From Nitrospirota bacterium (GTDB taxonomy: Bacteria; Nitrospirota; Thermodesulfovibrionia; Thermodesulfovibrionales; UBA1546), in contig JAKALU010000004.1 of NCBI GenBank assembly GCA_021824065.1, positions 1 through 59,794 on the forward strand: a stretch of 59,794 nucleotides of DNA. Direction: 5' to 3'. Below are positions 1 through 28,717 of the stretch, one piece after another. The position numbers and the translations under genes were made by a program. The notes below the pieces were generated by a model, which worked only from the letters and a program-made list of their open reading frames with translations, had not been told where the DNA came from and did no database searches. Numbering within the stretch: the stretch's first letter is position 1; the number at the start of each line of letters is the position of its first letter.

Positions 1-1369
1 GAAAGATAAATATGACAGAGCAACTGCTCTTTTAAAAAACCCTGAACGAACGACATTTATATTTGTCATGAGACCGGAGGAGTTGTCCCTATATGAAACT
101 CTGAGGGCATCAAAAGAGCTTGAGACTATTGGGATTAAATCGGGTCAGATAATCATAAATGGTATCCTGCCTGAAGAAGTCTGCGATGTTGAATTTTTCA
201 GAAGAAAATATGATTCGCAACAGAAGGTAATCAAAGAAACGGAAAGTGTAATAGATAAGCCCAAGCGATATATGTTTTTGAGGGATAATGAGGTGAAAGG
301 GGTTAGTGCATTAAAGGGTGTAGCAGAAGAATTATTTGCTACACATACTACACATAACAATATTAATCGTATGTCATTCCCGCAAGCAGAGCGCGTCGGG
401 AATCCTTCTGAGGAGAATGATTCCGGACAAGCCGGAATGACAAAAATAGAAGCTGTAGTCTTAAGTGCTGACCACCTTAGTAATATCCAAAAAACTGAAA
501 TAGACCGTCTTTTTCTTCCATCCGGTGAGACAAAGTCGCTCTTCTTTACCGGCAAAGGCGGAGTTGGCAAGACTACCATATCCTGTATTACTGCATTATA
601 CATAGCTCAAAAGGGTTTTAAAACACTTCTTGTCACAACAGACCCTGCTGCACATATCGGCGAAGTCCTCGACATCAAGATTGGAAGCAGGCCGCAGAAG
701 ATAACAGATAACCTGTTTGCGGTGATGGTGGACCAGCGAGAGGCATTTCAGGAGTACAAGGAAAAGGTTCTGAACGACGCACGAGGGAAATATTCAGAGG
801 ACATGCTTGCAACAATGGAAGAGGAACTTAATTCACCCTGCACTGAAGAAATGGCGGCATTTGACAAATTTATTCAATTCATAGAAAACAGTGATTACGA
901 TGTTGTTGTATTTGATACAGCACCAACAGGTCATACACTACGGCTCCTCGATCTTCCTTTCGACTATGCAAAACAGGTAGAGATGATGGTTTCGTCAGTT
1001 GAAAGCTCTGACATCAAAGAGACTACTCAGAACAGGTTCAGGGATATCATCAGTACGCTGAGAAATAAAAATAGAACTGTCTTCAGCCTCGTTCTTTATC
1101 CTGAGTCTACCCCGATAATGGAATCCTATCGTGCCATGCTCGATTTAAAAGATGCAGGAATACAAACCCAACTTGTGGTTGCAAATCTGATACTGCCAGA
1201 AGAAGTCTGCACCAACGACTTTTTCCGGAACAGGAGACGTATGCAGATAAAATATTTGGAAGAAATTAAGGAAAAATTCAACCTTCCCGTACTTCATCTC
1301 CGTATGATGCAGGATGAGATAAGAGGACTTAAAGCATTGAAAAATGCATTGGAAACATTGAACCGCTAA
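1..1369 (+). CDS. arsA: Arsenical pump-driving ATPase ArsA (5'-truncated by window edge)
   Basis: Frame is open from the window start (KDKYDRATALLKNPERTTFIFVMRPE). The second ATPase half has P-loop GKGGVGKTT, the TDPAAH motif and DTAPTGH. Confidence 0.9.
   Translation, partial: KDKYDRATALLKNPERTTFIFVMRPEELSLYETLRASKELETIGIKSGQIIINGILPEEVCDVEFFRRKYDSQQKVIKETESVIDKPKRYMFLRDNEVKGVSALKGVAEELFATHTTHNNINRMSFPQAERVGNPSEENDSGQAGMTKIEAVVLSADHLSNIQKTEIDRLFLPSGETKSLFFTGKGGVGKTTISCITALYIAQKGFKTLLVTTDPAAHIGEVLDIKIGSRPQKITDNLFAVMVDQREAFQEYKEKVLNDARGKYSEDMLATMEEELNSPCTEEMAAFDKFIQFIENSDYDVVVFDTAPTGHTLRLLDLPFDYAKQVEMMVSSVESSDIKETTQNRFRDIISTLRNKNRTVFSLVLYPESTPIMESYRAMLDLKDAGIQTQLVVANLILPEEVCTNDFFRNRRRMQIKYLEEIKEKFNLPVLHLRMMQDEIRGLKALKNALETLNR
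372..442. repeat. TGTC-tagged REP-like double-hairpin element inside the arsA linker
   Basis: Termini tgtcattcc...ggaatgaca are a 9-bp perfect IR. Internal hairpins attcccg/cgggaat and attccgg/ccggaat. Read in-frame as MSFPQAERVGNPSEENDSGQAGMT. Confidence 0.8.
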
Positions 1370-1379
1370 GAAGAAAAAA

Positions 1380-1727
1380 ATGAAGGCAAAAACCCTGTCG
1401 TTGATAGGACTTTTATTTCTTATCATTTTATCAGCAAGCTGCAGTAATGCAGCAGGCATCGATGATGTGTTGAATAAGGCAAAAAAAGAAGGCAAAATTG
1501 TTATGCTCGAACTTGGCTCGGTAGGTTGTCGCTCATGCGAGCAGATGAAGCCGGTCATGGAAAAGCTACGGACGAATTACAAGGGGAAAATAGAAGTCAT
1601 CTGTGTAGATGTTCGAAAAGACAGAGAGAACGGCAGGCGGTTTGGCGTTGCCATGATGCCGACACAGGTATTCCTGGATAGAAGTGGCAAGGAGTTTCAC
1701 CGGCACATCGGCTTCTACCCTTATTAA
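1380..1727 (+). CDS. Exported thioredoxin-family protein (CRSC), apparently truncated by a premature TAA
   Basis: Signal/lipoprotein-like N-terminus, GCRSC active site, PTQVF cis-Pro motif. The frame continues past the TAA as EIVPILKKTGL* to 1763. Confidence 0.8.
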   Translation: MKAKTLSLIGLLFLIILSASCSNAAGIDDVLNKAKKEGKIVMLELGSVGCRSCEQMKPVMEKLRTNYKGKIEVICVDVRKDRENGRRFGVAMMPTQVFLDRSGKEFHRHIGFYPY

Positions 1728-1756
1728 GAGATAGTGCCTATACTCAAAAAGACAGG

Positions 1757-1876
1757 CTTATAACAGAGAGCATTGTCGGCTCAAGAGGCGTCAGAAACTT
1801 TTCACTCTATTCAAAAAGGTTCAGCGGTGCGATACTGGTAATAGTAGGGATTTATTTCGGGATAACAAATATCTGA
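1757..1876 (+). pseudogene. Possible 3' relic of a CcdA/ArsG-like membrane protein
   Basis: Startless frame reads ...ESIVGSRGVRNFSLYSKRFSGAILVIVGIYFGITNI*, a basic stretch followed by one TM helix, resembling CcdA-family C-termini. It lies directly after a thioredoxin gene. Confidence 0.35.
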
Positions 1877-1929
1877 GGAGTAAACAGGAAAAAATTTAGA
1901 TATATAAAATCCGGCTCAAGGAGGTTGTT

Positions 1930-2388
1930 ATGAGAGTAAAAAAAGCTTTAAGTCTTTTGTTTGTAGCATCACTGGTTTTTACTGCCTCATTTGTCTTTGC
2001 CCAGCCAATGAGAGGCGTGTGGAAAGGAAGCGGCGGATGGGGCATGGGTTCGCAATATAACAAAATGTACAACCCTGCAACGGTCGAAACCGTGTCAGGC
2101 ACAGTTGAGGCAGTTAAGAAGTTTACACCCATGAAGGGAATGTATTCAGGAATCCACATTATGCTCAAGACGGATAAAGAGAGCGTGGATGTGCATCTCG
2201 GCCCTGAATGGTATATTGAACGGCTCGACACAAAGATCGAGAAAGGCGATAAGATCGAAGTCAAAGGTTCGAAGGTAACAATGATGGGCAAACCTGCCAT
2301 TATTGCAGCAGAGGTAAAGAAAGGCGACAGCACCCTTGTCCTCAGAGACAGCGCAGGAATTCCTGCATGGGCGGGTTGGAGAAGGTAG
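1930..2388 (+). CDS. Exported OB-fold protein (HLGPxWY family, MamS/MamX-like domain)
   Basis: Signal peptide, Gly-rich linker, VSGTVEAV and VHLGPEWY motifs, strong RBS ggagg. Confidence 0.65.
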   Translation: MRVKKALSLLFVASLVFTASFVFAQPMRGVWKGSGGWGMGSQYNKMYNPATVETVSGTVEAVKKFTPMKGMYSGIHIMLKTDKESVDVHLGPEWYIERLDTKIEKGDKIEVKGSKVTMMGKPAIIAAEVKKGDSTLVLRDSAGIPAWAGWRR

Positions 2389-2469
2389 ATTTAGAAATCG
2401 GTGTAAAGATAACATAAAAGGCCATGTTTTGAGCCGGAGGCAGGGCTGCTTTATTAATGAGGGTATCTT

Positions 2470-2679
2470 ATGATACTTGGAAGTATTTTATTGACAACAC
2501 TCATAGTTAGTCTCATTTCTTTGGTAGGGATATTTTTTGTTAGGATGAAGGAAGAATTCAGGGATGTTGTTGATAAAGTGATACAATATTGTAAAGAGAA
2601 GAATTATATTTCTCAGGACGTATCATACGATATTGATTCGATTGCGGAGGAGATCATCAAGGGTCAGGATACATTATGA
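2470..2679 (+). pseudogene. Short chimeric ORF; N-terminus resembles the first helix of a ZIP metal transporter
   Basis: MILGSILLTTLIVSLISLVGIFF resembles ZIP-family N-termini. The remaining 40 aa are hydrophilic and unassigned. Confidence 0.35.
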
Positions 2680-3068
2680 AGATAGAGTTTGAGCCTATAG
2701 GTTTTGTTAAAACAGAGACAGAGAATGTTCCACGGCATTGGACTATCTCTGATGCGGAAGGCACGATAGTCATTGACGAGCAGTACAAGGAAGGGCTTAA
2801 AGACATTAAGGCCGGACAGCGCATTGTCGTGCTTTTCTATTTCCATCAAAGCCCGCGGTTTACTCCTGACCTGCTTGTGCAGAAGCCCCGGCATCGTAAC
2901 GAGCAGTTGGGCGTTTTCAGCATCTGCTCTCCAGTCAGACCCAATCCTATCGGCATGTCGGCTGTAGAAGTTCTCAAGGTCGATGGTTGCACCATCCATA
3001 TTAAAGGGCTGGACATGCGGGACGGTTCGCCTGTCCTGGATATCAAACCCTATGTGGAGCGTGAATAA
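2676..3068 (+). CDS. tsaA: TrmO/TsaA-like SAM-binding protein (tRNA m6t6A37 methyltransferase family)
   Basis: PIGFV, GVFSICSPVRPNPIG and DGSPVLDIKPY motifs. Confidence 0.85.
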   Translation: MKIEFEPIGFVKTETENVPRHWTISDAEGTIVIDEQYKEGLKDIKAGQRIVVLFYFHQSPRFTPDLLVQKPRHRNEQLGVFSICSPVRPNPIGMSAVEVLKVDGCTIHIKGLDMRDGSPVLDIKPYVERE

Positions 3069-3785
3069 ATGGCTCTTCTTGAAATAACAGGTCTCACATA
3101 TATGACCCATGGGAAAGAAATACTTTCAGGACTCTCTTTTTCCATAGAGGCATCGGAAGTGCATGCCCTACTCGGCACAAACGGCACCGGAAAAAGCACC
3201 CTTGCCTATCTGATCATGGGCTGTGAAGGATACAGACCGACATCCGGGGAAATAGTATTTGACGGAAATGTGATTAATGACCTCAAGATCCATGAGAGGG
3301 CAAGGCTCGGCATTACAATGGCATGGCAGGAACCGGTGAGGTTTGAGGGTATATCGGTAAAAGATTATATTACAATAAAAAATAAAGATGCAGACCCTGC
3401 ATATTATCTTGAGATGGTTGGATTACATCCTGAACTCTATCTCCTCAGGATGGTTGACAAATCCCTAAGCGGCGGAGAGAGAAAGAGGATTGAGCTTGCA
3501 TCCATCCTTGCATTGAATCCAAAACTTGCTATCCTTGACGAGCCTGACTCCGGCATAGACATGCTTTCAACACAGGATATTATCAATGTCATCAATGCTT
3601 TTAAGAAAAACGGCTCTGCAGTTCTGCTCATAACCCATAGGGAGGAGATTGCCCTGATTGCAGATAAGGCATCTCAAATATGCAGGGGTAAAATTGTCTG
3701 TGCAGGAAGTCCCAGGGAAGTGGCTGAATATTATAAAGCAAGAAAATGTCTTGTATGTGATGGAGAGGTATGTGCCTATGTCTGA
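3069..3785 (+). CDS. sufC: Fe-S assembly ABC ATPase SufC (SmsC-like, minimal system)
   Basis: Walker A GTNGTGKST, LSGGERKR signature, ILDEPDSGID. Cys-rich C-terminus CLVCDGEVC. Confidence 0.88.
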   Translation: MALLEITGLTYMTHGKEILSGLSFSIEASEVHALLGTNGTGKSTLAYLIMGCEGYRPTSGEIVFDGNVINDLKIHERARLGITMAWQEPVRFEGISVKDYITIKNKDADPAYYLEMVGLHPELYLLRMVDKSLSGGERKRIELASILALNPKLAILDEPDSGIDMLSTQDIINVINAFKKNGSAVLLITHREEIALIADKASQICRGKIVCAGSPREVAEYYKARKCLVCDGEVCAYV

Positions 3786-4713: not shown

Positions 4714-5150
4714 CAGAGAAAAAACTGGAAGTAATGTTTCTCTGCACAGCCAATTCCTGCCGTTCACAGATGGCTGAAGGATTTGCAAGACATTATGTAA
4801 GTGAACTCTTAGAGGTTTACAGCGCAGGACTCCTTGCTACCAGGGTTCATCCAAGGGCTATTGCTGTCATGAAAGAAATCGGCATTGATATATCAGGGCA
4901 GAGTTCAAAAGAGATGGATGAAAAACTATTGAGAAAAATGGATGTGATCATAACATTATGCGACAACGCTGAGGAATCCTGCCCCTGGACACCGCCTGAG
5001 ATAAAACGCATCCACTGGCCTATCAAAGACCCTGTAGGAACAATAGGATCAGAGGAAGAGATAATGCAAGAATTCAGAAGGGCAAGGGATGAAATAAAGA
5101 AAAATATAAAGGACTTTATCAGTGGAATAAAGAAGGATGTTACATTATAA
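4710..5150 (+). CDS. arsC: Thioredoxin-coupled arsenate reductase (LMW-PTPase fold)
   Basis: CTANSCRSQMAEG P-loop, CDNAEESCP, HWPIKDP. Confidence 0.9.
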   Translation: MTEKKLEVMFLCTANSCRSQMAEGFARHYVSELLEVYSAGLLATRVHPRAIAVMKEIGIDISGQSSKEMDEKLLRKMDVIITLCDNAEESCPWTPPEIKRIHWPIKDPVGTIGSEEEIMQEFRRARDEIKKNIKDFISGIKKDVTL

Positions 5151-5159
5151 TATAACATC

Positions 5160-5510: not shown

Positions 5511-7650
5511 CACTCTCTTATTTTCCTTTGTAAATAAAGGCCTGCAGAACAGCATTTTTGATGTATCCATGCCTGTTATCACAGAAAAGTATTATTTTAT
5601 TATATTGGTTTTAACGGGATGGCTCATAATAAAGAATAAAAAAGCAGCCATTGTTCCTATATTGCTCGCAGTTGTATCAGTAGCACTCTCAGACTGGATT
5701 TCAAATACAGTGAAACACCTTGTAGAAAGGCCAAGACCTTGCCATACATTAGAGACAGTAAGATTACTTGTTGGTTGCGGGGGTTCTTTTTCTATGCCGT
5801 CAAACCATGCTGCAAATGCATCTGCGATTATTTTTGCCCTGTCGTATCAGTCGAAAAAATGGGCGCAATGGCTGCTTCTAACAGTAGCTGCCCTTGTCGG
5901 ATTTTCGAGGATATATGTTGGGGTTCATTATCTATCTGATGTAATCGTTGGCGCACTTATCGGTGTTGTTGTCTCTATACTCGTAATCTATTCGTATAGG
6001 TGGGCATTGCTCAGATATAAGTCGAACCCTTATAGCACAGTGCTGTTAATATCTCTGCTGAGTTTAAGTCTATTCCGCATATACTACATTACACAGGGCA
6101 CTATTGATTTAAGTCCTGATGAGGCACACTACTGGGAATGGTCGAGAAGACTCGATTTGAGTTACTATTCAAAGGGTCCCATGATTGCATATCTTATAGC
6201 CTTTGGCACAGCTATTTTTGGTGACAATGTTTTTGGCATAAGAATAATGGCTGTAGTATCCTCTGTGCTGAGCAGCATCTTTATGTATCTGTTAGGCAGG
6301 CAGCTATTTGATGAACGGACAGGAGTTGCATCAGCGATTCTGATGCAAATTATTCCTCTTTATTCAGCATTCGGAGTACTCTTTACCATAGATTCTCCAT
6401 TTATATTTTTCTGGATGTTGTCGCTATATCTGTTTTATAGAGCAGTAGAGCAGCAGAGCAGCAGTTCGGCATTAAATACTTCCGAACTTCTGCCCTTCCG
6501 AACTTCTGCCCTTATATATTGGCTTCTCCTCGGTATTTCAATCGGCCTCGGTCTTCTCACAAAATATACAATGGCATTTTTTTATATCTGTGGATTTCTT
6601 TTTCTACTTGCCTCGAAACAGTACAGGTACCTTCTCCTGACAAGATGGCCATACATAAGCTTCATTTTAAGCCTCGTTGTCTTTAGCCCTGTTGTTGTGT
6701 GGAATGCAGACCATAATTGGGTTACCTTGAGGCATACAGCAGGACAGGCGCATATCAGTGAACAGTTGTCAGTTGTCAGCAGTCAGTGGTCAAAGAATTT
6801 CTTGGAATTTTTAGGGTCGCAGGTTGGAATTATTACCCCTGTAATTTTTATATTGATGATATTTGCACTATTTAAACTTAAAAATGAGGCAAAAAAGTTG
6901 CAACAAATTGCAAAGGATAGTGAAAATAATCCCCCCTCACCCCCCTTTAATAAAGGGGGGAAGGTGGGACTAACAAAAAGGTACAATGGAGATTTCCTAT
7001 TCTGGTTTTCAATTCCAATAATTGTATTTTTTATGCTGAAAAGCCTTCATGGCAAGGTTCAGGCTAACTGGGCACTCCCTGGCTATGCAACCGGATTCGT
7101 TGCGGTTTCCGCTCTATTTATTGGCAGATGGGAATCTGTGAAAAAGCGGGTAAGATGGACGATAATTGTTGGTGCTGTGCTATCCCTGAGCACTACTGTA
7201 ATTGCCCATTCCCTGCCCATCTTAAAATTACCTTCCAACTTAGACCCGAGTGCAAGGATAAGGGGATGGAAAGAACTCGGGAAAGAGGTAAGCAGGCTGT
7301 CCGATGAGCTTTCAAAGGAGGGGCCGTTTTTTATTTTTTCTGATAGATACCAGGTGTCGAGTGAGCTTGCATTTTATGTGAAAAACCACCCTGTTACCTA
7401 TTGTGTGAATCTCGGGAGGAGAATGAACCAATATGATCTGTGGCCAGGGTTTAATAACCTCATCCATTTCAATGCAGTTTTTGTTACAATAGACATTGCG
7501 CAGATGCCTGACGCCTTTATAACGGCTTTTGATAGATGCGAAAAAAAAACCTTCACTGTTTATACTGAAGGCAGAAAACTCAGAGACTATTCAATATTCA
7601 CATGCTATGATTTTAAAGGAATGCAACAGAAAGGAATAACAAGCTACTGA
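5488..7650 (+). CDS. PAP2 phosphatase fused to an ArnT/PMT-like (GT83/GT39) lipid-carrier glycosyltransferase
   Basis: N-terminal PAP2 motifs KHLVERPRP, PSNH, SRIYVGVHYLSD. Then DEAHYWEW...YYSKGP and LLTKYT motifs with many TM helices. Confidence 0.85.
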   Translation: MMSLREIDTLLFSFVNKGLQNSIFDVSMPVITEKYYFIILVLTGWLIIKNKKAAIVPILLAVVSVALSDWISNTVKHLVERPRPCHTLETVRLLVGCGGSFSMPSNHAANASAIIFALSYQSKKWAQWLLLTVAALVGFSRIYVGVHYLSDVIVGALIGVVVSILVIYSYRWALLRYKSNPYSTVLLISLLSLSLFRIYYITQGTIDLSPDEAHYWEWSRRLDLSYYSKGPMIAYLIAFGTAIFGDNVFGIRIMAVVSSVLSSIFMYLLGRQLFDERTGVASAILMQIIPLYSAFGVLFTIDSPFIFFWMLSLYLFYRAVEQQSSSSALNTSELLPFRTSALIYWLLLGISIGLGLLTKYTMAFFYICGFLFLLASKQYRYLLLTRWPYISFILSLVVFSPVVVWNADHNWVTLRHTAGQAHISEQLSVVSSQWSKNFLEFLGSQVGIITPVIFILMIFALFKLKNEAKKLQQIAKDSENNPPSPPFNKGGKVGLTKRYNGDFLFWFSIPIIVFFMLKSLHGKVQANWALPGYATGFVAVSALFIGRWESVKKRVRWTIIVGAVLSLSTTVIAHSLPILKLPSNLDPSARIRGWKELGKEVSRLSDELSKEGPFFIFSDRYQVSSELAFYVKNHPVTYCVNLGRRMNQYDLWPGFNNLIHFNAVFVTIDIAQMPDAFITAFDRCEKKTFTVYTEGRKLRDYSIFTCYDFKGMQQKGITSY
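6441..6513. repeat. In-frame tandem-unit hairpin element in the GT gene
   Basis: Octamer run agcagtag/agcagcag/agcagcag, then the 16-mer cttccgaacttctgcc twice (6479-6510). Encodes EQQSSSSALNTSELLPFRTSAL. Confidence 0.65.
6756..6790. repeat. In-frame heptamer tandem repeat (cagtNNN x5)
   Basis: cagtgaa cagttgt cagttgt cagcagt cagtggt. Encodes SEQLSVVSSQW. Confidence 0.75.
6928..6970. repeat. In-frame poly-C/poly-G palindrome (PPSPPFNKGG element)
   Basis: cccccc-ttta-a-taaa-gggggg is a perfect IR at 6940-6960. Confidence 0.75.
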
Positions 7651-8588: not shown

Positions 8589-9477
8589 AAAAGAAAAAAT
8601 AGCGCTGTTTATCATAAAGCTGCTTATAAGCGCCAGCCTTCTTTATCTTGTCCTCTCAAAGGCCGGGATAAATAATGTGTTATCTATAATTAAGACCATA
8701 ACCCCGGTTGCCTTTGCCTCCGCAATACTTATTCATATCTTCTCTCAATATGTCTCATCCATAAGATGGAGGCTATTGTTGCCAGAAGAATTCAGGGGGA
8801 AAAGGCTGTTCTCTTTTTATCTGATAGGTTCTTTTTTTAATACATTCCTCCCGGGCATTATTGGCGGAGATGCTGTGAAGACTTATTACCTCTATAAGGA
8901 AACAAACAAGGGCAGCCTTAGCCTTGCCTCTGTATTTATGGATAGATACATAGGCTTTATATCATTAATGATTATGGGGCTCGTTGCATTTATATTAGGA
9001 TTCGGATATGTCAAAGGGACAATAATTGAATGGCTTTTACCTTCGATAATCTTATTGTTCCTGCTTGCAAGCCTCGTAATCTTTGGGCTTCGTCTCGGCA
9101 AAAGGATAAAGATGCTTTTTGAGTTTTATGAATATTTTCATGCGTACAGAAATCAAGGAGATGTGATTGCAAAAACCCTTCTCCTCTCATTTATTATCCA
9201 GGTGCTGAGCACACTGTCTCTATATGTAGTCACACTGGGCCTCGGCCAGCGCATATCACCCTTGTATTTTTTTATTTTTTTCCCTATTATTACTACGATT
9301 TCAACTTTGCCGATCTCCATATCTGGGATTGGCATAAGAGAAGGCTTATTTGTCCTTTTATTTGGGCTGTTAGGCATTAAACCTGAAATGGCAACCGCAA
9401 TGGCATTTGCATGGTTCTTATCTATTGCATCCGGAGGGCTTGCTGGACTCTTTGAATACCTGAGGTTAAAAAGATGA
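8578..9477 (+). CDS. Flippase-like membrane protein (UPF0104 / lysylphosphatidylglycerol synthase TM family)
   Basis: FFNTFLPGIIGGDAVK and PISISGIGIRE motifs, multiple TM helices, TTG start. Confidence 0.8.
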   Translation: MAHKKEKIALFIIKLLISASLLYLVLSKAGINNVLSIIKTITPVAFASAILIHIFSQYVSSIRWRLLLPEEFRGKRLFSFYLIGSFFNTFLPGIIGGDAVKTYYLYKETNKGSLSLASVFMDRYIGFISLMIMGLVAFILGFGYVKGTIIEWLLPSIILLFLLASLVIFGLRLGKRIKMLFEFYEYFHAYRNQGDVIAKTLLLSFIIQVLSTLSLYVVTLGLGQRISPLYFFIFFPIITTISTLPISISGIGIREGLFVLLFGLLGIKPEMATAMAFAWFLSIASGGLAGLFEYLRLKR

Positions 9478-9911
9478 CAGGGAAGGTCATTTCAATTAAT
9501 ATAAGCGATCAAAAGGGCGTTCGCAAAAAACCGGCTAAAGAGGCAGTGGTAAAAATAAATTATGGGATTGAAGGCGATGCACACGCCTCTGAAAAATGGC
9601 ACAGGCAGATTAGCCTTCTTGCAATTGAGAGCGTTAAGAAGATGCGGGCGATGGGCTTGGATGTAAATCCGGGTGATTTCGCAGAGAACATAACTACCGA
9701 AGGCATAAACCTCCCAGAACTTCCCATTGGCACCAGGATGACCATCGGTGAGGTTGAATTAGAGGTAAGCCAAATAGGCAAGGAATGTCACACCAGGTGT
9801 AATATATACTATCAGGCAGGTGATTGTGTTATGCCGAAAGAGGGGATCTTTGTGAAGGTTATTAAAGGTGGAAAGATTAAAGAAGGAGATGAAATAGCAG
9901 TCAGTATGTAG
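9474..9911 (+). CDS. MOSC domain protein
   Basis: GIEGDAH, RQISLL, PGDFAENIT, QIGKECH and MPKEGIF motifs. Confidence 0.85.
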   Translation: MTGKVISINISDQKGVRKKPAKEAVVKINYGIEGDAHASEKWHRQISLLAIESVKKMRAMGLDVNPGDFAENITTEGINLPELPIGTRMTIGEVELEVSQIGKECHTRCNIYYQAGDCVMPKEGIFVKVIKGGKIKEGDEIAVSM

Positions 9912-9966
9912 CAGACAGTGAACAGGATAAAAATATTCCTGACCACCGGCTACTGACTGCTGACTA
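9902..9966. repeat. Heptamer-armed intergenic hairpin element
   Basis: Left arm cagtatg/tagcaga/cagtgaa/cagga; right arm ctgacca/ccggcta/ctgactg/ctgacta. Same cag-/ctg- unit type as 6756-6790. Confidence 0.55.
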
Positions 9967-9976
9967 CGGGCTACTT

Positions 9977-14301: not shown

Positions 14302-15657
14302 TCAATACTTCTCCATGCGTATCCTTATTGTATTCCCATGCGCCTCAAGTCCTTCGATATCTGCGATGGTTTCGACTGTTTTTGCAAGCTTCAGAAACCC
14401 ATGCTTCATGAATGAAAGAATGCTTGAGCGTTTAATAAAATCATAAACACCAAGTGGCGATGAAAACCTTGCAGTCCCCCCGGTTGGCAGAGTGTGATTC
14501 GGGCCTGCTGAATAATCCCCCAGCGGCTCTGGAGTCCATGGGCCCAAGAATATTGCACCGGCATTCCTGATCATCGGCAGGATAGAAGCAGGTTTTTTAG
14601 TGACTATCTCAAGATGTTCAGGCGCAATTTTATTTGAAAGTTCAATGGCCTGGGTTATATCTTTCACGATAATAATTGCTCCATAACTTGAAATAGATTT
14701 TTTTGCAATATCTTTTCTCTTGAGATCTTTGAGTTGTTTTCCAAGTTCCTTGTTGACCTTTTCTGCAAGGGCAATGGAGTTCGTAATTAATATTGCTGAT
14801 GCAAGTTCATCATGCTCTGCCTGGCTTAACATATCCGCTGCAATGAAAGCAGGATTTGCTGAATCGTCTGCGATTATCAGAATCTCGCTTGGCCCTGCGA
14901 TCATGTCAATGTCCACCACTCCAAAGACCATCCTCTTTGCTGTTGCTACATAGATATTCCCAGGTCCCACAATCTTATCAACCTTTCTTATCGTCTCAGT
15001 GCCGTAAGCCATTGCCCCTATTGCCTGTGCTCCGCCGATTCTATACACCTCTTTAATATCAAGCAATTTTATTGCTGCCATCACGTAGGGGTTTATCTCT
15101 CCTTTAGGCGTAGGGACACAAAGGGCGATTTCTTTAACGCCGGCAACCTGTGCGGGTATTACATTCATCAAAACAGTAGATGGATATGATGCCTTGCCGC
15201 CAGGTACATACACACCTGTTCTTTCAACCGGCTGTATAATCTGGCCGAGGAGAGCGTGGGGGGAACGTTGTTTTCCCCACGTGCCCCCCTTAAAGATTTC
15301 AACATAATTACCCACAGGAAATTTCCTGTAGTTTTTATCCTCAACTAACCATGACCCTTCTTTCTGCACCTCATGAAATTTACGTATCCTCTTTGCAGAA
15401 ATCTCAAGGGCTTTAACAACCTTTTTATCAGCCCTGTTTGCAAATTTCGATATCTCAGCAGGTTTTAATATCAATGTCTTTGCATCCGGATAGTCAAATC
15501 TCTTTGTGTATTTGAGGACAGCGGTATTGCCATTCTTCCTCACATTATTGAGGATTGAGCTTACTTTTTTTTCTATTACAGGATTACTGCCCTGGGCGCG
15601 CTTTCTTAAAACACTGAGAAATAGCTGAATATCTTTTATTTTTCTTATAATTCTCAT
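14302..15657 (-). CDS. hisD: Histidinol dehydrogenase with an in-frame palindromic insertion
   Basis: YVPGGKASYPS, GGAQAI, GPGNIYV, IDMIAGPSE, QAEHD, APEHLE, GPNHTLPT. Start placed at ATG 15657. Confidence 0.95.
   Translation of the reverse strand: MRIIRKIKDIQLFLSVLRKRAQGSNPVIEKKVSSILNNVRKNGNTAVLKYTKRFDYPDAKTLILKPAEISKFANRADKKVVKALEISAKRIRKFHEVQKEGSWLVEDKNYRKFPVGNYVEIFKGGTWGKQRSPHALLGQIIQPVERTGVYVPGGKASYPSTVLMNVIPAQVAGVKEIALCVPTPKGEINPYVMAAIKLLDIKEVYRIGGAQAIGAMAYGTETIRKVDKIVGPGNIYVATAKRMVFGVVDIDMIAGPSEILIIADDSANPAFIAADMLSQAEHDELASAILITNSIALAEKVNKELGKQLKDLKRKDIAKKSISSYGAIIIVKDITQAIELSNKIAPEHLEIVTKKPASILPMIRNAGAIFLGPWTPEPLGDYSAGPNHTLPTGGTARFSSPLGVYDFIKRSSILSFMKHGFLKLAKTVETIADIEGLEAHGNTIRIRMEKY
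15256..15330. repeat. In-frame palindromic insertion in hisD
   Basis: Hairpin gtggggggaa...ttccccac (15256-15280) plus the perfect 16-bp palindrome acaggaaatttcctgt (15314-15329). Confidence 0.65.
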
Positions 15658-21589: not shown

Positions 21590-21630
21590 GTTCATCTAAT
21601 GGCATATTTATCTAAAAGATAGGAGATTAG

Positions 21631-22024: not shown

Positions 22025-24769
22025 ATGCGCTGGCATCAGAAAAAGATAGAAGACATATTCGAGCAACTACAGTCATCATTACAGGGACTTTCTTCAGAAG
22101 AATCGCAAAAGCGGCTTAAAGAATATGGCCCAAATGAGTTAAAGGAGAAGAAAAAAAGGACTACGCTCATGATGTTTCTTGACCAGTTCAAGGACTTCAT
22201 GATACTTGTACTTATTGCTGCTGCAATTATATCAGGGATTATTGGCGAGCCATCGGATACTATTGCAATAGTAGTAATCGTTGTCATTAATGCCATCATC
22301 GGATTTATTCAGGAATACAGGGCTGAGAAGGCAATGGCAGCCCTGAAAAAGATGGCAGCGCCGGTTGCCACTGTAATAAGAGATGGAAGACCTGCAAACA
22401 TCTCTGCATCTGAACTTGTACCTGGCGATATTGTAAACCTTGAGGCAGGAAAGTTTGTCCCGGCTGATATGAGACTTATAGAGGCTGCTCAGTTAAAAAT
22501 AGAAGAGGCAGCACTTACTGGCGAATCCATCCCGATAGAAAAACATACAAAGGTTTTACATGATGAAATGCTTCCATTGGGCGATAGAAAGAATACGGCA
22601 TACAGGGGCACAATGGTTTCCTATGGAAGAGGCAGTGGAATTGTTGTTGCTACTGGCATGGATACAGAACTCGGCAAGATTGCCACTATGCTTCAAGAGG
22701 AAGAAGAGGTAAAAACACCCCTGCAGAAAAGGCTTGCAAGCTTTGGTCAGAAGCTTGCCCTCTCTGTTCTTGCAATATGTGCGATCGTTTTTGGTGTTGG
22801 AATTCTCAGGGGAGAGGAACCTATTCTTATGTTTCTTACAGCTATTTCATTGGCTGTCGCGGCAATACCAGAGGCATTGCCTGCTGTAGTAACTATTTCC
22901 CTTGCAATTGGCGCCAAGAAGATGGTCAGGCAAAATGCCCTGATAAGAAAACTTCCGGCAGTAGAAACCCTTGGCTCTGTTACGTATATATGCTCTGATA
23001 AAACAGGCACTCTGACATTAAATAAGATGACAGTTGAGGAGATTTATGTAGATGGCGAAATACTTAAAGGTGAAGAGTTAAAAGTTAAAAGTGAAAAAAT
23101 AAAAAAACTTTTAACTTTTAATTCTTCCGCCCCAGGCGGACCCACCCAAGGAGGGCAACTTTCAACTCTGTTCAGGGCAATGGCTTTGAGCAACGATGCT
23201 GTAACTGATAAAGATGGCAATGTTATCGGCGACCCGACTGAGGTGGCTCTTTTTTCAATAGCAAAAGATTATGGTTTTAATAAGGAAGAGCTTGAAAAGG
23301 AATTCCCGCGTGTTGCAGAGATACCATTTGATTCTGACAGGAAATGCATGACGACATTTCACAAGGGTTCAAGGGTTCAAGGGTTCAAGGATTCAAGTGG
23401 GGGAAAAAATCTTTTGCTCGACCCCTCGACTCCTCGACCCCTCGAACCCTTTGAATTTATTTCCTTCACCAAAGGCGCAATCGAAGCATTAATAGATAAG
23501 GCAGACAATGTTTTAACCTCAGAAGGGGTTAAGGTTATAGATAAAAAAGAGATTCATCAGATAAATGAACGGATGGCTGCTGACGGGCTGAGGGTGCTCG
23601 GCATTGCAATGAGAACATGGGATGCCCTGCCAGATGATATGAGTCCTGAAAATGTTGAGACAGGACTTACGATACTCGGACTTTGCGGGATAATGGACCC
23701 TCCGAGAGAGGAGGCCAGAGAAGCGGTCTCATTATGCAAGACAGCAGGAATAAATCCTGTGATGATTACAGGCGACCATCCAATAACAGCATGGGCTATT
23801 GCAAAACGCATTGGAATAATAGAGGGATACGAGGGCGTAATCACGGGAAGGGAACTCGAAAGACTTCCTCTCGAGGAGTTTGAAAAAAGGGTAGAGCATA
23901 TAAGTGTATATGCCAGGGTTGCGCCTGAGCAGAAATTGAAGATTGTAAAGGCGCTTCAGGATAAAGGCCAGTTCATTGCAATGACAGGCGACGGCGTTAA
24001 TGATGCGCCTGCATTGAAAAGGGCAGATATCGGAGTTGCCATGGGAATTACAGGGACTGATGTGGCAAAGGAATCAGCTCACATGATACTTCTCGATGAC
24101 AATTTTGCAACCATCATAAAGGCGGTGAAGGAAGGAAGAAAGATATACGACAACATAAGAAAGTTTATAAAATACCTTCTTTCAACAAATTCAGGAGAGA
24201 TATGGACGCTGTTTCTTGCGCCGCTTATTGGTCTGCCGATTCCCCTGCTGCCAATCCATATTCTCTGGATAAATCTGATGACAGACGGACTTCCTGCGCT
24301 TGCTCTGTCTGTTGAGCCTGCAGAGGAGAATGTGATGAAAAGACCGCCGAGAGACCCAAAAGAAAGCATATTTGCCCACGGGCTTGGATTTTTTGCTATA
24401 TGGGTAGGGCTGTTGATGGCGGGTCTCTGTCTTTCAGTTCAGGCATGGTCTATTAAGACAGGACATTTCCACTGGCAGACAATGGTCTTCACGATACTCT
24501 GCCTTATGCAGCTTGGAAATGCACTTGCCGTAAGATCAGAAAGAGAGTCATTGTTTAAGATAGGATTATTTTCCAATAAGCCTTTGTTGGGCGCTGTGCT
24601 GTTGAGTTTTGGTTTACAGATGTCAACTATTTATATCCCGGCCTTAAATCCAATATTCAGGACAGAACCATTAACTCTCAACGAATTACTCCTTACACTT
24701 GCTGTATCATCTGTGGTATTCTTTGCAGTGGAAGGGGATAAGTTCTTTAAGCGCAGATTTAAAAAATAA
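22025..24769 (+). CDS. P-type (IIA, Ca2+-like) cation-transporting ATPase with two in-frame repeat insertions
   Basis: [37 protein letters not shown]. Confidence 0.95.
23069..23167. repeat. In-frame heptamer-armed element with nested mini-palindromes
   Basis: agttaaa agttaaa agtgaaa ... taacttt taatt, then tccgccccaggcgga. Same architecture as intergenic 34782-34895. Confidence 0.7.
23360..23455. repeat. In-frame octamer-armed hairpin element
   Basis: caagggtt x3 + caaggatt, spacer, then ctcgaccc/ctcgactc/ctcgaccc/ctcgaacc. Same family as intergenic 42091-42199. Confidence 0.75.
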
Positions 24770-24799
24770 GCTATGAAGAGGTTGAACCTCAATAGATCC

Positions 24800-24837
24800 T
24801 TGCCCCAAGAAACTGCTGGAGCGGGAAGGGTATTTAA
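24800..24837. repeat. Direct repeat, left copy, flanking the BrnTA module
   Basis: ttgccccaagaaactgctggagcgggaagggtatttaa; 36/38 identical to 25431-25468. Confidence 0.9.
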
Positions 24838-25091
24838 GCAGCCTTGCGTTTGTTCAAATTCTCAAGAACCCACATCCTGATTAACTCAAGATAACCTATG
24901 CCTTTGCCCTGAGCCATTTTCTTCAATTCCTTAATAGTCTTTTCATCAAGCCTGAGAGATACAAGCTTTTTTGACGGCCGTGTGAATTTTACTTTAACCT
25001 CTCTTGTTTCTGACAGATAATCAGTAGTGTCGTGCGTTGCCCAGAAATCAGCCTCTTCTTTTTCTGATTTAAATTTTGGTATCTTTTTCAT
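24834..25091 (-). CDS. CopG/BrnA-family antitoxin
   Basis: KKIPKFKSEKEEADFWATHD followed by a C-terminal RHH-like segment (VSLRLD). Confidence 0.85.
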   Translation of the reverse strand: MKKIPKFKSEKEEADFWATHDTTDYLSETREVKVKFTRPSKKLVSLRLDEKTIKELKKMAQGKGIGYLELIRMWVLENLNKRKAA

Positions 25092-25095
25092 ATTC

Positions 25096-25365
25096 TCATC
25101 TCCTCTTATAAAAAGACTTTTCCCTTTCGGTCATGTCCCTTGCAGTTATTGTCCTGAAAATACCCTTCCCTTTATTTATCCCAATGATGATCAAATGCCT
25201 TCCATCGTCTGTAATTCCGTATATAAGGTATCTATTATCAAGGGTCTTCCTAATATAGGGTTTATTCAAGCATGCTTCCTCAATCTCATCCGGAACTACA
25301 TGATGCCTAAGTATATGTTCAATATTGTTCTCATCCCACTCAAATGCCTTAAATATCAAGAACAC
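25096..25365 (-). CDS. BrnT-family toxin (ribonuclease)
   Basis: FEWDENNIEHI..H and FRTITARDMTEREK motifs; lies directly upstream of the antitoxin. Confidence 0.85.
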   Translation of the reverse strand: MFLIFKAFEWDENNIEHILRHHVVPDEIEEACLNKPYIRKTLDNRYLIYGITDDGRHLIIIGINKGKGIFRTITARDMTEREKSFYKRR

Positions 25366-25430
25366 TCCTGCTATCTATGAGATGTCTATAAGATAGCTCT
25401 AATAAATTATTTTGTCAAACTATTCTGCCA

Positions 25431-25468
25431 TTGCTCCAAGAAACTGCTGGAGCGGGAAGGGTATATAA
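25431..25468. repeat. Direct repeat, right copy, flanking the BrnTA module
   Basis: ttgctccaagaaactgctggagcgggaagggtatataa. Confidence 0.9.
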
Positions 25469-25577
25469 CAAAAAAAGTGTTACATTAAAAGCAAAAAATG
25501 GTAGCATATCCTGTGTATAAAAACACAAAGAATAAGACTTGGGCTGTTATGAAGATGATTAAGATGCGGAGGAAGAT

Positions 25578-26456
25578 ATGTCAGACATTATAGTGCAAAC
25601 AAATTTAGAAGACGTTAAGCTACTCAGGCGTGGGAAAGTGAGAGATGTCTATGAGATTGGAGATAATTTGCTAATTGTGGCCACAGACAGAATATCTGCA
25701 TTTGATGTTGTGTTGCCTGGCGGCATTCCTGATAAAGGTAAGATCTTAACCCAGATATCAGTCTATTGGTTTAATCAGGTGAAAGACATAATCGAAAACC
25801 ATATTGTGTCTACCAACGTTAAGGATTATCCGCCTGTTCTGCATAAATATAAGAATATTCTGGAGGGCAGGAGCATGCTTGTAAAAAAGGCAAGGCCAAT
25901 GCCTGTTGAATGCATTGTAAGAGGATATCTTTCTGGTTCGGGATGGAAGGAATATAAAGAAAAGGGAACTGTTTGTGGTATAAAACTCCCTAATAGTTTA
26001 GTAGAGTCGTCAAGACTTAATGAGCCAATATTCACACCGAGCACAAAGGCAGAGGAAGGTCATGACATAAACATCAGCTTCGATAAGATGAAAAATATAG
26101 TCGGAGAAGACAAGGCAACTAAGCTCAGGGATTCAAGCCTGGATGTGTATAAAACGGCAAGGGGACTTGCAGAAAAAAAAGGTATAATCATTGCTGATAC
26201 AAAAATGGAATTTGGCATCTATGAAAATAAATTAATTCTGATTGACGAGCTTCTTACTCCAGATTCATCGCGATTCTGGTCCATAAAGGATTATAAACCA
26301 GGCAAAGGACAAGACAGCTATGATAAGCAGATTGTAAGGGATTATCTTTTAACGCTTGACTGGAATCAGACATATCCTGGACCCGAACTTCCGAATGAGA
26401 TTATAGAAAAGACCGCAGCGAGATACAAAGAGATACTCGGTATACTTATAGCGTAG
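25578..26456 (+). CDS. purC: Phosphoribosylaminoimidazole-succinocarboxamide (SAICAR) synthase
   Basis: [46 protein letters not shown]. Confidence 0.97.
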
Positions 26457-26462
26457 CGAGAT

Positions 26463-27227
26463 TCATTTGCCTTTTAGCCTTGATAGTATAATGCCTATGT
26501 ATTTGTTAATAAGATTGCTCCTCCGAAGGAAGGGGATAACGGGTTTTCTTCTCGTGCCGAGTTTCCTTAATTCCCATAGCAGGTCATGGTTAGTTCTATC
26601 AATCTTTAATCCATTGTTAAATGCCTCAATAGCTAATTGCCTTTGTCCACCGGCAAGATGCGCCCTTCCCAGGTTCAGATAAAACGTGGCATAAAGAGGT
26701 TCCTCACCGGGTGTTACAACTGGGTTAAGCTTTTCTAATGCCCGTTGACATATCTTTATGCCTTCATCATACTTTTTTTCAACAATAGCCTTTAAACAAC
26801 CATAATAAGACATAATAAACGGGTCTTCAGGGAATTCTTCAAGCGCATCCCTTAATATCTTTAATGCCTGTTTATTGTTGCCTCTTCTAAGCAGTTTTTT
26901 CACTGCATCAAAATATTCTGTCTTTTTTTTGTTTTCTTCAACCCTCTTTGTAAACTCTTCTATGACACTTTTATGTTGCCTGTCCATCATATCTTTGAGT
27001 CTATCATCATAATCTTTTGCGTTCAGGATATCCGAATAATCAGTCTTTTTCGAATAAACGATCTCTCCTTTATGGTAGATATAGGTCGTAACAGATGGAT
27101 TATCTGTGCCACCGTTTTCTGTCTGGACATGGTAGGTTTTATCACCTAATGTGATATTTATATTGAATCCTGGAGGGATTTTTAATGCAAGGTGTACTCT
27201 ATCAGATTTTTTTGCCATATATCTCAT
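26463..27227 (-). CDS. TPR-containing protein
   Basis: N-terminal YHVQTE domain and C-terminal TPR-like helices (YLNLGRAHLAGG). Start uncertain. Confidence 0.7.
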   Translation of the reverse strand: MRYMAKKSDRVHLALKIPPGFNINITLGDKTYHVQTENGGTDNPSVTTYIYHKGEIVYSKKTDYSDILNAKDYDDRLKDMMDRQHKSVIEEFTKRVEENKKKTEYFDAVKKLLRRGNNKQALKILRDALEEFPEDPFIMSYYGCLKAIVEKKYDEGIKICQRALEKLNPVVTPGEEPLYATFYLNLGRAHLAGGQRQLAIEAFNNGLKIDRTNHDLLWELRKLGTRRKPVIPFLRRSNLINKYIGIILSRLKGK

Positions 27228-27256
27228 ATGTAACAGAAATTGATTATTTAATCAAG

Positions 27257-27285
27257 TTGAAACTCGAAAATACCTCTGTTATAAT
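27257..27285 (+). promoter_or_regulatory. Sigma70 promoter, likely leaderless
   Basis: TTGAAA-17 bp-TATAAT with an extended -10 TG; the GTG start is 6 nt downstream and there is no SD. Confidence 0.65.
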
Positions 27286-27291
27286 CGTTTC

Positions 27292-27861
27292 GTGGAAAGA
27301 AGGGTGGTATATTTTGAGAAGCCTGGAAGGGAAAACACGTCTGCATGTCTTGAGGTTGTCAAACAGGCAATAAAAGAAAGCGGATACAGACATCTTATCG
27401 TTGCAACAACAGGAGGGGATACCGGCCTTTTATTTTCAGAGGCATTTAAATCCTCTAAGATTAATCTGGTTGTTGTGACACACTCAGCTGGTTTTAAGGA
27501 GCCTAATACATTTGAGATGCCTGATGATATCAGAGAAAAGATAAAGGCAAATGGTGCCGGGATTTATACAGGGACAATGCTTACCCATTCTATAGAGACA
27601 GCCTTCGCAGCCAAGTTTAGCGGTTCTTATCCGACCCTTATTATTGCCCAGTCTTTGAGGAGGTTTGGTGAGGGGCCAAAGGTATGCTGTGAGATCGCTA
27701 TGATGGCTACTGATGCAGGTCTTATCCCTGAAGAGGAGGAAGTCCTTGCAGTTGCAGGCACAGGAAGGGGTGCTGATACAGTGATGGTTATTAAGTCTGC
27801 CGCATCAAAACGGTTCCTTGACCTGAGAGTCCTTGAGATATTAGCAAAACCGAGGGTGTAA
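27292..27861 (+). CDS. Pyruvate-kinase C-terminal (alpha/beta) domain-only protein
   Basis: YFEKPGRENT, VATTGGDT, VVVTHSAG, KVCCEIAMMATDAG, GRGADT. Confidence 0.8.
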   Translation: MERRVVYFEKPGRENTSACLEVVKQAIKESGYRHLIVATTGGDTGLLFSEAFKSSKINLVVVTHSAGFKEPNTFEMPDDIREKIKANGAGIYTGTMLTHSIETAFAAKFSGSYPTLIIAQSLRRFGEGPKVCCEIAMMATDAGLIPEEEEVLAVAGTGRGADTVMVIKSAASKRFLDLRVLEILAKPRV

Positions 27862-27940
27862 ACTTCCTGCATTCTTTAATACAGGTATTCATTTTACGTC
27901 CAAACAATGTGGAATCCCAAGTTAAAATATATGTATCTTA

Positions 27941-28717
27941 CTAAGATGCTAATGCTGGCACATCTTCAAGATAGTGAATGATATCTGCCACTTCTGTACC
28001 TTCCATTACAAAAAAGACCCTCCCGCCAGTTGTGTTTCCATATCGTTTGATATTTGGTATTCTTAAATATCCAAATATTCTTGATGCAATATAACCTGTT
28101 GTGTAATCAGGGTCGTCAGAGATGCATATCTCTGCAACGATATCGGGACATGATGCTACCTTTGATGCGAGGGTTAAAGCCTCTTTAACAGCCGTGGTGT
28201 TTATACGTGATTTTGAAAGCCTTTGTGCTAATCCCCTTTTAGCGGATTTTTCTATCCCCAGTCTTGATACCCTTACCCCACGCTCTCTGTCAGGCTCAAT
28301 ACGAAGGCCGGATTTTATAAGTATTAACGCAGCGCCCCGCATTGTTTTTTTTGATTTTAGAACTTTTAGTCCATTGGTGATAGCTGTCTTTGAAATACCA
28401 ACGCCTGACAGATTTCGAAATATAATCTCATCTGACTCACATGTAGAATTACATCTTAGTGTGGTTACCGGTAATAAAGGAATTTTTTCAGGTTTTTGTT
28501 TTATTTTTTCAATTGTAATCACAATCCTGTCAGGCTTGCCCCTCGAATGATTTAAAGCCCTTTTTATATATCCGTTGCTGATCTTCGATATCTCTGATTC
28601 TTTGTATATCCCCTCAGCACCCGAGATGTGAATATCTGGAACTCCTATGGCTTTGCTTCTGACTTCTGAGTTCTGAGTTCTGACCCTTTTCGATGCCCTC
28701 ATCCGTATGTTCCACAT
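27941..28717 (-). CDS. bioW: 6-carboxyhexanoate-CoA ligase (pimeloyl-CoA synthetase)
   Basis: IRMRAS..HISGAE, GVRVS, EALTLASKV, EICISDDPDYTTGY, GGRVFF. Confidence 0.9.
   Translation of the reverse strand: MWNIRMRASKRVRTQNSEVRSKAIGVPDIHISGAEGIYKESEISKISNGYIKRALNHSRGKPDRIVITIEKIKQKPEKIPLLPVTTLRCNSTCESDEIIFRNLSGVGISKTAITNGLKVLKSKKTMRGAALILIKSGLRIEPDRERGVRVSRLGIEKSAKRGLAQRLSKSRINTTAVKEALTLASKVASCPDIVAEICISDDPDYTTGYIASRIFGYLRIPNIKRYGNTTGGRVFFVMEGTEVADIIHYLEDVPALAS
28657..28684. repeat. In-frame heptamer tandem repeat in bioW
   Basis: ttctgac ttctgag ttctgag ttctgac. Encodes part of RVRTQNSEVRS between MRASK and HISGAE. Confidence 0.75.

Follow-up and report, generated by a model that had tools for sequence, protein, structure and literature searches.

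We analysed a stretch of 59,794 nucleotides from a Nitrospirota bacterium (Thermodesulfovibrionales, UBA1546; GenBank contig JAKALU010000004.1, positions 1 to 59,794), hereafter the window, which corresponds to contig C163 in an assembly of 211 contigs and 2.73 Mb. Among named sequences, its proteins match best those of metagenome-assembled genomes of Thermodesulfovibrionales/Nitrospirota. Five conserved enzymes encoded in this window carry short in-frame segments of repeat DNA that add loops to the proteins. The hosts, identified with Pfam, are an ArsA ATPase (ArsA_ATPase), a GT39/ArnT-like fusion protein (PAP2 and PMT_2 domains), a histidinol dehydrogenase (Histidinol_dh, HisD), a Ca-type P-type cation ATPase and BioW. 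A first-pass annotation had listed at least eight such segments, with intergenic relatives near 9900, 33270, 34782 and 42100 and a half-copy near 29990, and had ascribed them to one active repeat system that adds peptide loops to conserved enzymes. All eight segments lie where it had placed them, in frame and within intact open reading frames (ORFs), the intergenic relatives are real, and further copies are present across the genome: the segments are indeed derived from repeats. The idea of a single system, on the contrary, has to be abandoned, since the segments belong to at least four structurally unrelated repeat classes, rather than being relatives of one element, and these classes differ strongly in how they are distributed between coding and intergenic DNA. 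All four classes are dispersed in the genome.

The loops of the P-type ATPase and of the ArnT-like protein are hot spots in which the repeat cassettes are replaced fast. We compared 120 orthologues of the ATPase (73–85% identical to that of the window) and 118 of the ArnT-like protein. In the ATPase, the loop at site 1 spans 16–46 residues and that at site 2 spans 7–44 residues, site 2 being empty in about eight orthologues. The cassettes at either site are drawn from a limited set and combined in many ways; the set comprises fold-backs of GTTAAAA words and of the GGGTTCAA type, class II elements and several others. Three ATPase genes from three assemblies (P0025, P0038 and P0044) show 14–29 differences over about 2,560 nt outside the cassette (98.9–99.5% identity), their upstream 1.2 kb are 96.6–97.8% identical, and the flanks of the cassette, one base excepted, match over at least 95 nt on either side. 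Between these flanks, the 87–99 nt are unrelated fold-backs, namely (GGGGTTAG)n/(CCCCAATC)n, (GCAGGAT)n/(ATCATGC)n and (GTGAAAA)n/(CTTTTAA)n, and a fourth gene, 97% identical, has a direct CCATTCAC/CGATTCAC array. An assembly artefact was considered and ruled out: the ORFs are intact, each cassette junction is unique, and independent assemblies have alleles in common.

The ArnT-like protein behaves similarly at its site 1, a hypervariable loop of 5–71 residues in the 118 orthologues. In the pairs P0165/P0166 and P0167/P0169, which are 98.9% identical outside the loops, the site 1 cassettes are different, a class II cassette being opposed to a 71-residue composite or to a 14-residue array. The cassettes differ in 59% of the close pairs at ATPase site 2 and in 42% at ArnT-like site 1; because the database of orthologues is clustered, these values are not population frequencies, and what matters is that such pairs exist. 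In close relatives, quite different repeats occupy the same loops, and therefore these are fast-changing landing sites for repeat DNA. Sites 2 and 3 of the ArnT-like protein are stable among close pairs. The loop at site 3 has 37 residues here, versus a median of 6 residues in the orthologues; in relatives it is empty, or it holds a class III-type element read in frame (VIARS..RYARNDR; VIPAEAGIQ..HGNDR).

Both ATPase segments are extra relative to the structure of Listeria LMCA1, and the Pfam match to the N domain covers 103 residues for 79 profile positions. An AlphaFold2 (AF2) model built from the 120 orthologues is of moderate quality (predicted local distance difference test, pLDDT, 63), the blocks of the N domain outside the inserts being mostly at 64–87. 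Between residues 334 and 655, and hence in the N domain as we delimited it, the only low-confidence stretches are 354–376 and 450–475 (pLDDT below 50 for the latter). They match the two inserts, and residues 448–477 are predicted to form a coil between strands 441–447 and 478–484, in agreement with a location of the insertions in loops. The features of the window are collected in Table 1.

Table 1. Repeat-derived features of the window, in order of position (hairpin strength is given as DNA fold z)
Feature	Position	Strand	Description
ArsA, class III double hairpin	373..441	+	69 nt or 23 codons, translated as SFPQAERVGNPSEENDSGQAGM; in the linker that joins the two halves of ArsA; z -3.7
ArnT-like site 1, class I fold-back	6439..6513	+	(GAGCAGCA)x3, GTTCGG/CCGAAC hairpin, TTCTGCCC-type units; 8-nt words; z -2.6
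ArnT-like site 2, class I heptamer array	6756..6792	+	CAGTNNT x5, read as SEQLSVVSSQWS; no hairpin
11-nt tandem	6889..6914	+	GCAAAAAAGTT x2.5; just 5' of the class II palindrome, within the enlarged loop of ArnT-like site 3
ArnT-like site 3, class II C6/G6 palindrome	6925..6972	+	read as NPPSPPFNKGGKVG; one of about 35 copies; z -2.9
Class I fold-back	9895..9975		overlaps the stop of gene 9474–9911; z -4.3
HisD insert	15258..15332	-	25 residues; two hairpins, z -3.7; older layer of about 45 nt with the 16-nt palindrome ACAGGAAATTTCCTGT
HisD inner layer	15266..15292	-	27 nt, in the window only; like the G-block half of class II by eye
ATPase site 1, class I fold-back	23072..23127	+	(GTTAAAA)n/(TTTTAAC)n; 21-bp stem; 17-residue peptide; z -5.6
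Class IV mini-hairpins	23126..23155	+	30 nt, 10 codons; nested inside the right arm of the fold-back of ATPase site 1
ATPase site 2, class I fold-back	23362..23450	+	imperfect, 8-nt words, (CAAGGGTT)x4 ... (CTCGACCC)x4; loop between two N-domain strands
BioW, class I heptamer array	28656..28684	-	GTCAGAA x4, read RTQNSEVRS; loop between RMRAS and HISG; no hairpin
G-block half-element	29986..30060		a single copy of GGAATATYGGCAAAAGAATCCGCTCAAA, an abundant intergenic motif, comes next
Intergenic class I fold-back	33262..33357		GTTAAAA-type words; directly downstream of tRNA-Ser (33358–33447, minus strand)
Intergenic composite	34780..34903		GTTAAAA-type fold-back and class IV; directly downstream of tRNA-Ser(gct); z -5.1
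Intergenic nested fold-back	42105..42205		outer AGGGTTCA-type words, which are those of ATPase site 2; inner GTGTCAGT; z -3.7

The age of the inserts was judged against 30 related genomes. The first-pass annotation had expected the segments to be lineage-specific insertions. This stands for the ArsA element, the class IV nest, the inner layer of HisD, sites 1 and 3 of the ArnT-like protein and the exact cassette of ATPase site 2, but not for site 2 of the ArnT-like protein nor for the outer layers of HisD and of ATPase site 1, which are old and common to several genera or families. In distant orthologues and in solved structures, the segments are missing or different. At ArnT-like site 2, the old sequence SGQWSVVSDQWL is common to the subclade of the window, in place of the ancestral 8-residue AEGFNISI. 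The class IV stretch of the ATPase faces a 30-column gap in 15 of 15 relatives, and by our reading its peptide occurs in no other of the 120 orthologue loops. The outer GTTAAAA fold-back uses the same word at the same site in several genera, and a GTTACGA-word version takes its place in other genomes, two of which belong to other families. As read from the sequence, the GTTAAAA array ends at two perfect units; a third one would make a TAA.

The element of ArsA has the ends GTCATT...AATGAC, and its best other copy is intergenic (C11:3560–3627, 87.5% identity over 72 nt). Two ArsA paralogues encoded in the same genome, on contigs C61 and C86, lack the element, as do the orthologues of two other families (relative genomes G024 and G027). 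Just 5' of the element lies a tandem, (CTACACATA)x2 at 339–356, read TTHTTH, and therefore the ArsA linker holds two repeat-derived pieces. The genome has three ArsA paralogues, and the copy on C61 shows one in-frame TAG in the search output. The loop of BioW is, by our own comparison, about 10 residues longer than that of Bacillus subtilis BioW; the structure alignment starts at residue 29, past the loop.

HisD is the weakest case of repeat origin: a BLAST search of the genome gives no second full copy of the insert. The outer 15 residues are common to most genera of the family; in one genus, two genomes lack them and the third one has them. Residues 118–146 of the query stand opposite 5 residues of PDB entry 8xsq, in an alignment gap, and the AF2 model (15-sequence alignment, mean pLDDT 56) is too poor for the loop. 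In the hisD gene of a relative (locus L017 of genome G007, 100% complete), the two halves match in different reading frames, with 43 nt between them, precisely where the insertion is located; a repeat indel that shifted the frame or a sequencing error in the repeat could be the cause.

Class I consists of tandem arrays of 7- or 8-nt words, often paired as fold-backs. Tandem Repeats Finder detects 189 arrays of period 7 and 68 of period 8 scoring at least 40, versus none of either period in a simulated order-5 Markov genome; periods 6 and 9 are represented by 5 and 29 arrays in the genome. An inverted partner is found within 90 nt for 134 of 396 arrays, compared to 9 in the reversed-sequence control, which gives about 100 fold-backs, and 294 different canonical words occur among about 613 arrays. 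The class I members of the window are sites 1 and 2 of the ArnT-like protein, both ATPase sites, the BioW segment and the intergenic copies near 9900, 33270, 34782 and 42100. The location in genes was assessed with a crude codon-usage gene finder (2,741 genes, 89% coding) and arrays scoring at least 34. Nearly half of these (171/396) lie deep within genes and are translated, spread over 120 of the 2,741 genes (about 4%); the intergenic share is 35%, versus 11% of the genome, and shows enrichment between genes. Another count places 163 of 405 arrays deep in genes. About 34% of the fold-backs are in genes. Only 3 of the 61 intergenic fold-backs are located in divergent spacers, although these make up 21% of the spacer length. 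The spans of the fold-backs show no mod-3 bias, with boundaries that we placed only imprecisely. In the window (33262–33447 and 34780–34996), class I fold-backs stand immediately 3' of two minus-strand tRNA-Ser genes, which is the expected place of a terminator hairpin.

Class II is a palindrome of 44–45 nt, AATCCCCCC-TCA-CCCCCC-TTTAGTAAA-GGGGGG-ATG-GGGGGGATT, with a bipartite C arm, a loop and a bipartite G arm (C6-N3-C6, loop, G6-N2-3-G6). The genome has 35 strict copies, ArnT-like site 3 among them; the C6/G6 pattern read backwards has no match in 31 genomes. According to the gene finder, 30 of the 35 copies (86%) are in genes, versus 89% of coding genome (p = 0.58), and an independent long-ORF criterion places 38 of 45 in genes, versus 77% of random positions. 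Nearly all 30 intragenic copies are read in two stop-free phases, which gives the peptide PPxPP[LF]xKGGxGG; by our reading of the consensus, the third phase holds a stop. There is no simple multiple-of-3 rule, since the length between fixed landmarks is 44 or 45 nt. The hosts include proteins that we take, from sequence motifs, to be LeuRS and PurL, the latter with three copies. Single proteins that combine elements of different classes are found on contigs C113 and C73: a 1,492-residue fusion (C113:11260–15735), presumably of the BadF/BcrA/HgdC ATPase type as judged from its sequence, contains class II twice along with several peptides derived from heptamers, and the protein recognised as LeuRS (C73:21579–24323) has one class II copy and array-derived peptides.

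Class III is a double hairpin of 60–120 nt that resembles repetitive extragenic palindromic (REP) sequences, with terminal inverted repeats, GTCATT[CG]C ... G[CG]AATGAC. There are 38 pattern matches, about 36 of which are genuine by our own reading, including the ArsA segment. Only 8 of the 38 are in genes, and only 2 convincingly deep (Fisher p = 3e-8 versus class II). The count of coding and intergenic copies thus depends on the unit: class II is found in genes as often as expected at random and class III is mostly intergenic. Class IV consists of GC-rich mini-hairpins of about 30 nt (CGCCTCAGGCGAACCCGCCGAGGCGGG), nested within the other classes: inside arrays (in the window and in the relative genome G007) and inside class III (contigs C126 and C133). 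Nesting also involves a class II element within a fold-back loop, in the relative genome G002. The composite of ATPase site 1 recurs with the same junctions on contig C96 and at 34780–34903, its closest relative, which makes three loci in total. Within the genome, copies of classes II and III are 88–97% alike at unrelated loci. The mismatches between arms are mostly of transition type (A-C 51 versus G-T 31), with no excess of G-U on the sense strand, and therefore there is no sign of selection for mRNA hairpins.

The abundance of the elements varies widely between related organisms. In the family of the window, there are 0–165 matches per genome to the class II pattern and 2–146 to the GTTAAAA dimer, and copy numbers differ up to 50-fold among genomes of one genus. 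Together with the unrelated cassettes of ATPase genes that are about 99% identical, this speaks for the activity in this lineage that had been proposed. Most sister families have neither class II nor GTTAAAA dimers; the exceptions are f13, which has both, f6 and one f2 genome, which have class II only, and f12, which has GTTAAAA only. The 30-nt core of class II has exact matches in at least 120 stretches, mostly from Nitrospirota, of the species-genome collection. Elsewhere it is found in Thermodesulfobacteriota/"Deltaproteobacteria" (including the isolate Geomesophilobacter sediminis), Pseudomonadota, Nitrospinota, Chloroflexota, Planctomycetota, Atribacterota and bacteria of the candidate phyla radiation, some of these taxon labels depending on the binning of metagenome-assembled genomes (MAG). 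It is also present in 18 viral contigs, with 6 copies in IMGVR_UViG_3300035670_001258 (loci L221/L233). The fraction of copies in long ORFs is 22/33 in other Nitrospirota, 4/4 in Nitrospinota, 3/15 in "Deltaproteobacteria", 2/9 in Pseudomonadota and 7/17 in viral contigs (control 81%); the viral copies in ORFs read PPxPPLxKGGxGG.

The dispersal of the elements, their in-frame location in loops, their nesting, the recurrent use of the same loops and the unrelated cassettes of near-identical genes are, in our opinion, rather better explained than not by several families of small hairpin-forming repeat DNA which multiply in this Thermodesulfovibrionales family as selfish or neutral passengers. 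In the mechanism that we infer, new copies would arise without target-site duplication or linked transposase gene, by a copying process that probably acts on single-stranded hairpins and would favor existing repeats. A genic copy would survive only if it is in frame, free of stops and at a position that tolerates an extra disordered loop. This filter would fit the stop-free phases of class II and the GTTAAAA array that ends before a TAA. Because few positions combine these conditions, the same linkers and loops would be reused and become hot spots with nesting and quick replacement. The encoded peptides, PPxPP..KGGxGG for the C6/G6 palindrome and ELKVKS..LLTFNS for the GTTAAAA fold-backs, would be passengers and not adaptations.

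The existence of a mobiliser, which the first-pass annotation had coupled with non-autonomous elements, still belongs to the proposal and not to the observations. The genome contains two genes for Y1 transposases (Y1_Tnp) like the REP-associated tyrosine transposases (RAYT), at C80:3352–4059 and C13:3530–4024. They are not flanked by the repeats described here; both are flanked by a motif of their own, TTCGGGGGACACCATACT (inverted on C13), which has 4 copies in the genome. This motif also flanks a RAYT-like homologue in the relative genome G015. The numbers of Y1_Tnp and class II matches in 31 genomes are weakly correlated (rho 0.49, p 0.005, kinship ignored), with clear exceptions, and we treat this correlation as a lead only.

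Several observations weigh against the multiplication of passenger repeats. No gene could be singled out as the mobiliser: in their own genome the RAYT-like genes are not flanked by the elements, and no class II element is present within about 1.5 kb on each side of 15 RAYT-like loci of relatives. No target-site duplication is apparent for class III, the matching flank being 0 nt in 35 of 38 cases and 1 nt in 3, and no defined insertion boundaries were found. No very recent burst is visible in this genome, because the copies are alike to the extent given above and not identical. Class II is not depleted in genes, although depletion would be expected of purely selfish DNA on which purifying selection acts. 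Last, the tract swapped between ATPase genes extends into the conserved F-I/V-S codons, which fits an allelic exchange equally well.

It may be, indeed, that the diversity of cassettes is mostly old, and that loop alleles, which would have arisen rarely, are shuffled between strains or species by short-patch homologous recombination through conserved flanks, with little or no ectopic insertion. ATPase site 2 is flanked by TGCATGACGACATTTCA and TTCACCAAAGG, both of them conserved from family to family, the same cassette allele is found on different backbones and beside different site 1 alleles, and the cassette of the window at this site is common to the orthologue P0004 (80% identical), not to the closest orthologue P0002 (85%); the differences in the conserved codons mentioned above include synonymous ones. 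We nevertheless hold this explanation to be unlikely as a sufficient one. The near-perfect match of the cassette flanks in P0025, P0038 and P0044 reveals no imported substitutions, copy numbers within a genus differ up to 50-fold, and the presence of the same cassette families at different sites of one gene, in unrelated genes and in intergenic DNA requires ectopic copying. Short-patch allelic recombination across the conserved flanks of the loops probably adds to the shuffling.

A function of the elements in nucleic acids or in translation is quite improbable. They could be kept as hairpins or triplex-like structures that act in replication, transcription or mRNA decay, or, for PPxPP, as a cause of ribosome pausing at domain borders. 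The frequency of class II in genes, equal to that of random positions, the conservation of its 30-nt core across phyla and in viral contigs, the fold-backs directly 3' of two tRNA genes and the scarcity of fold-backs in divergent spacers would all fit such a role. It is made less likely by the fact that, in near-identical genes, unrelated cassettes and also empty sites can stand in for one another at the same loop; the arm mismatches show no sense-strand G-U excess, and outside Nitrospirota and Nitrospinota class II is mostly intergenic. Local replication slippage in unconstrained low-complexity loops, with nothing copied between loci, would have tandem 7- and 8-nt arrays as its classic product and would suit the variety of words and the hairpin-free arrays of ArnT-like site 2 and BioW, but it is very improbable as a general explanation and is contradicted for classes II–IV and the composites by the 30 or more similar copies of classes II and III at unrelated loci and in other phyla, by the identical composite junctions at three loci and by the swap, in 99%-identical genes, of whole cassettes of different words, which is beyond point mutation and slippage; it could still change the copy number within arrays.

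Multiplying passenger repeats, the reading that we favor, can be compared to several described systems. By analogy, the closest behaviour is that of the Rickettsia palindromic elements (RPE), and the closest arrays are the heptamer repeats of cyanobacteria and Beggiatoa. RPE are in-frame palindromic repeats of about 100–150 bp in reduced intracellular genomes (Ogata et al. 2000, 2002, as summarised in PMC10969869). According to this summary, they are, like the elements described here, small dispersed palindromes read in frame in unrelated housekeeping genes, with a family-specific peptide, insertions considered compatible with protein folding and no known mobiliser (PMC10969869). Here the elements measure 30–120 nt, form at least four classes that include tandem-word fold-backs and belong to a lineage of free-living anaerobes; because length and taxon differ, homology of sequence with the RPE families is not expected. 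The summary of RPE in PMC10969869, as far as it goes, mentions neither a recurrent use of the same loops nor a rapid replacement between near-identical strains.

The heptanucleotide repeats, which comprise the short tandemly repeated repetitive sequences of heterocystous cyanobacteria, the long simple sequence repeats and the TAACTGA arrays of Beggiatoaceae, are mainly intergenic and often located upstream of start codons (PMC4679880). They share with class I the excess of a 7-nt period, the many related words per genome, the patchy distribution among taxa and a spread without explained mechanism (PMC4679880), in contrast with the high proportion of translated arrays here and the inverted partner of about one third of them. 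The intrastrand-triplex repeats BoxC/PIT/TMECO of E. coli have one C-block followed by two G-blocks, measure 36 nt and are always intergenic (PMC4666352). Class II resembles them as a short conserved repeat of interrupted C- and G-blocks, associated with local variability of the genome and with no transposase nearby (PMC4666352), but it is a two-arm palindrome, and it is mostly intragenic both here and in other Nitrospirota.

REP palindromes and bacterial interspersed mosaic elements are described in PMC3733652 as carrying a GTAG or CGTC tetranucleotide tag at one end of the palindrome. Like them, class III is a mostly intergenic imperfect palindrome without target-site duplication, in a genome with two RAYT-like Y1 transposases. 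However, its ends are (T)GTCATT...AATGAC(A), those of class II are AATCCCCCC...GGGGGGATT, neither has a GTAG or CGTC tag, and the RAYT-like genes are flanked by TTCGGGGGACACCATACT and not by cognate REPs. Miniature inverted-repeat transposable elements (ERIC, BOX, Nezha and those of Anabaena) have terminal inverted repeats that match a parent insertion sequence, and target-site duplications, and they can form in-frame fusions with ORFs (PMC10969869). The elements of the window are also small inverted-repeat elements fused in frame with host ORFs, and class III has terminal inverted repeats, but not the duplication; no parent insertion sequence was found in a search that covered Y1 transposases.

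Other motifs are abundant in this genome. The commonest 12-mers belong to two strongly intergenic motifs, with a window copy at about 30018–30060: AGAGGCAAAAGCCCTCGGAGGTCG-[hairpin]-CGACCGAGAATGAGCGAAAATACTATGCC (47 copies, 45 intergenic) and GGAATATCGGCAAAAGAATCCGCTCAAATACTATGCC (35 copies, 30 intergenic), which are often opposed in a single spacer and resemble modules of promoter regions or of small RNAs; in the window, Rfam recognises only tRNAs and has no match to the intergenic motifs. A 29-nt unit, GTTTCATCTGAACCATGTGGGATATAAAG, with about 19 occurrences genome-wide, is probably the repeat of a clustered regularly interspaced short palindromic repeat (CRISPR) array elsewhere in the assembly.

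We found no description of such in-frame cassettes in Nitrospirota in the open-access literature. To our knowledge, in-frame repeat insertions are textbook material only for Rickettsia, and bacterial heptamer repeats have been without accepted mechanism or function since the 1990s. The two phenomena meet in this lineage, where essential enzymes are affected. In practice, the loops inflate the apparent divergence of proteins, split domain matches and seed spurious ORFs in the annotation of MAG, and the loops that receive cassettes mark permissive sites for protein engineering. Near-identical strains that differ by whole cassettes form a natural before-and-after series for the study of boundaries, donors and rates. 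It is conceivable, although we would regard it as a tentative proposal and doubtful at present, that an undescribed kind of DNA movement exists in Thermodesulfovibrionales and probably in other Nitrospirota and Nitrospinota, in which cassettes of 30–120 nt are exchanged precisely at fixed positions, essential genes included, without target-site duplication or linked transposase, either by a hairpin-directed template switch or by a single-strand enzyme acting in trans, with phages taking the C6/G6 palindrome, the most conserved cassette, from one phylum to another. In that case, the heptamer repeats that have been known in cyanobacteria for decades would stem from the same machinery, and the polymorphic loops of this family would be the first natural system in which its single events can be read.

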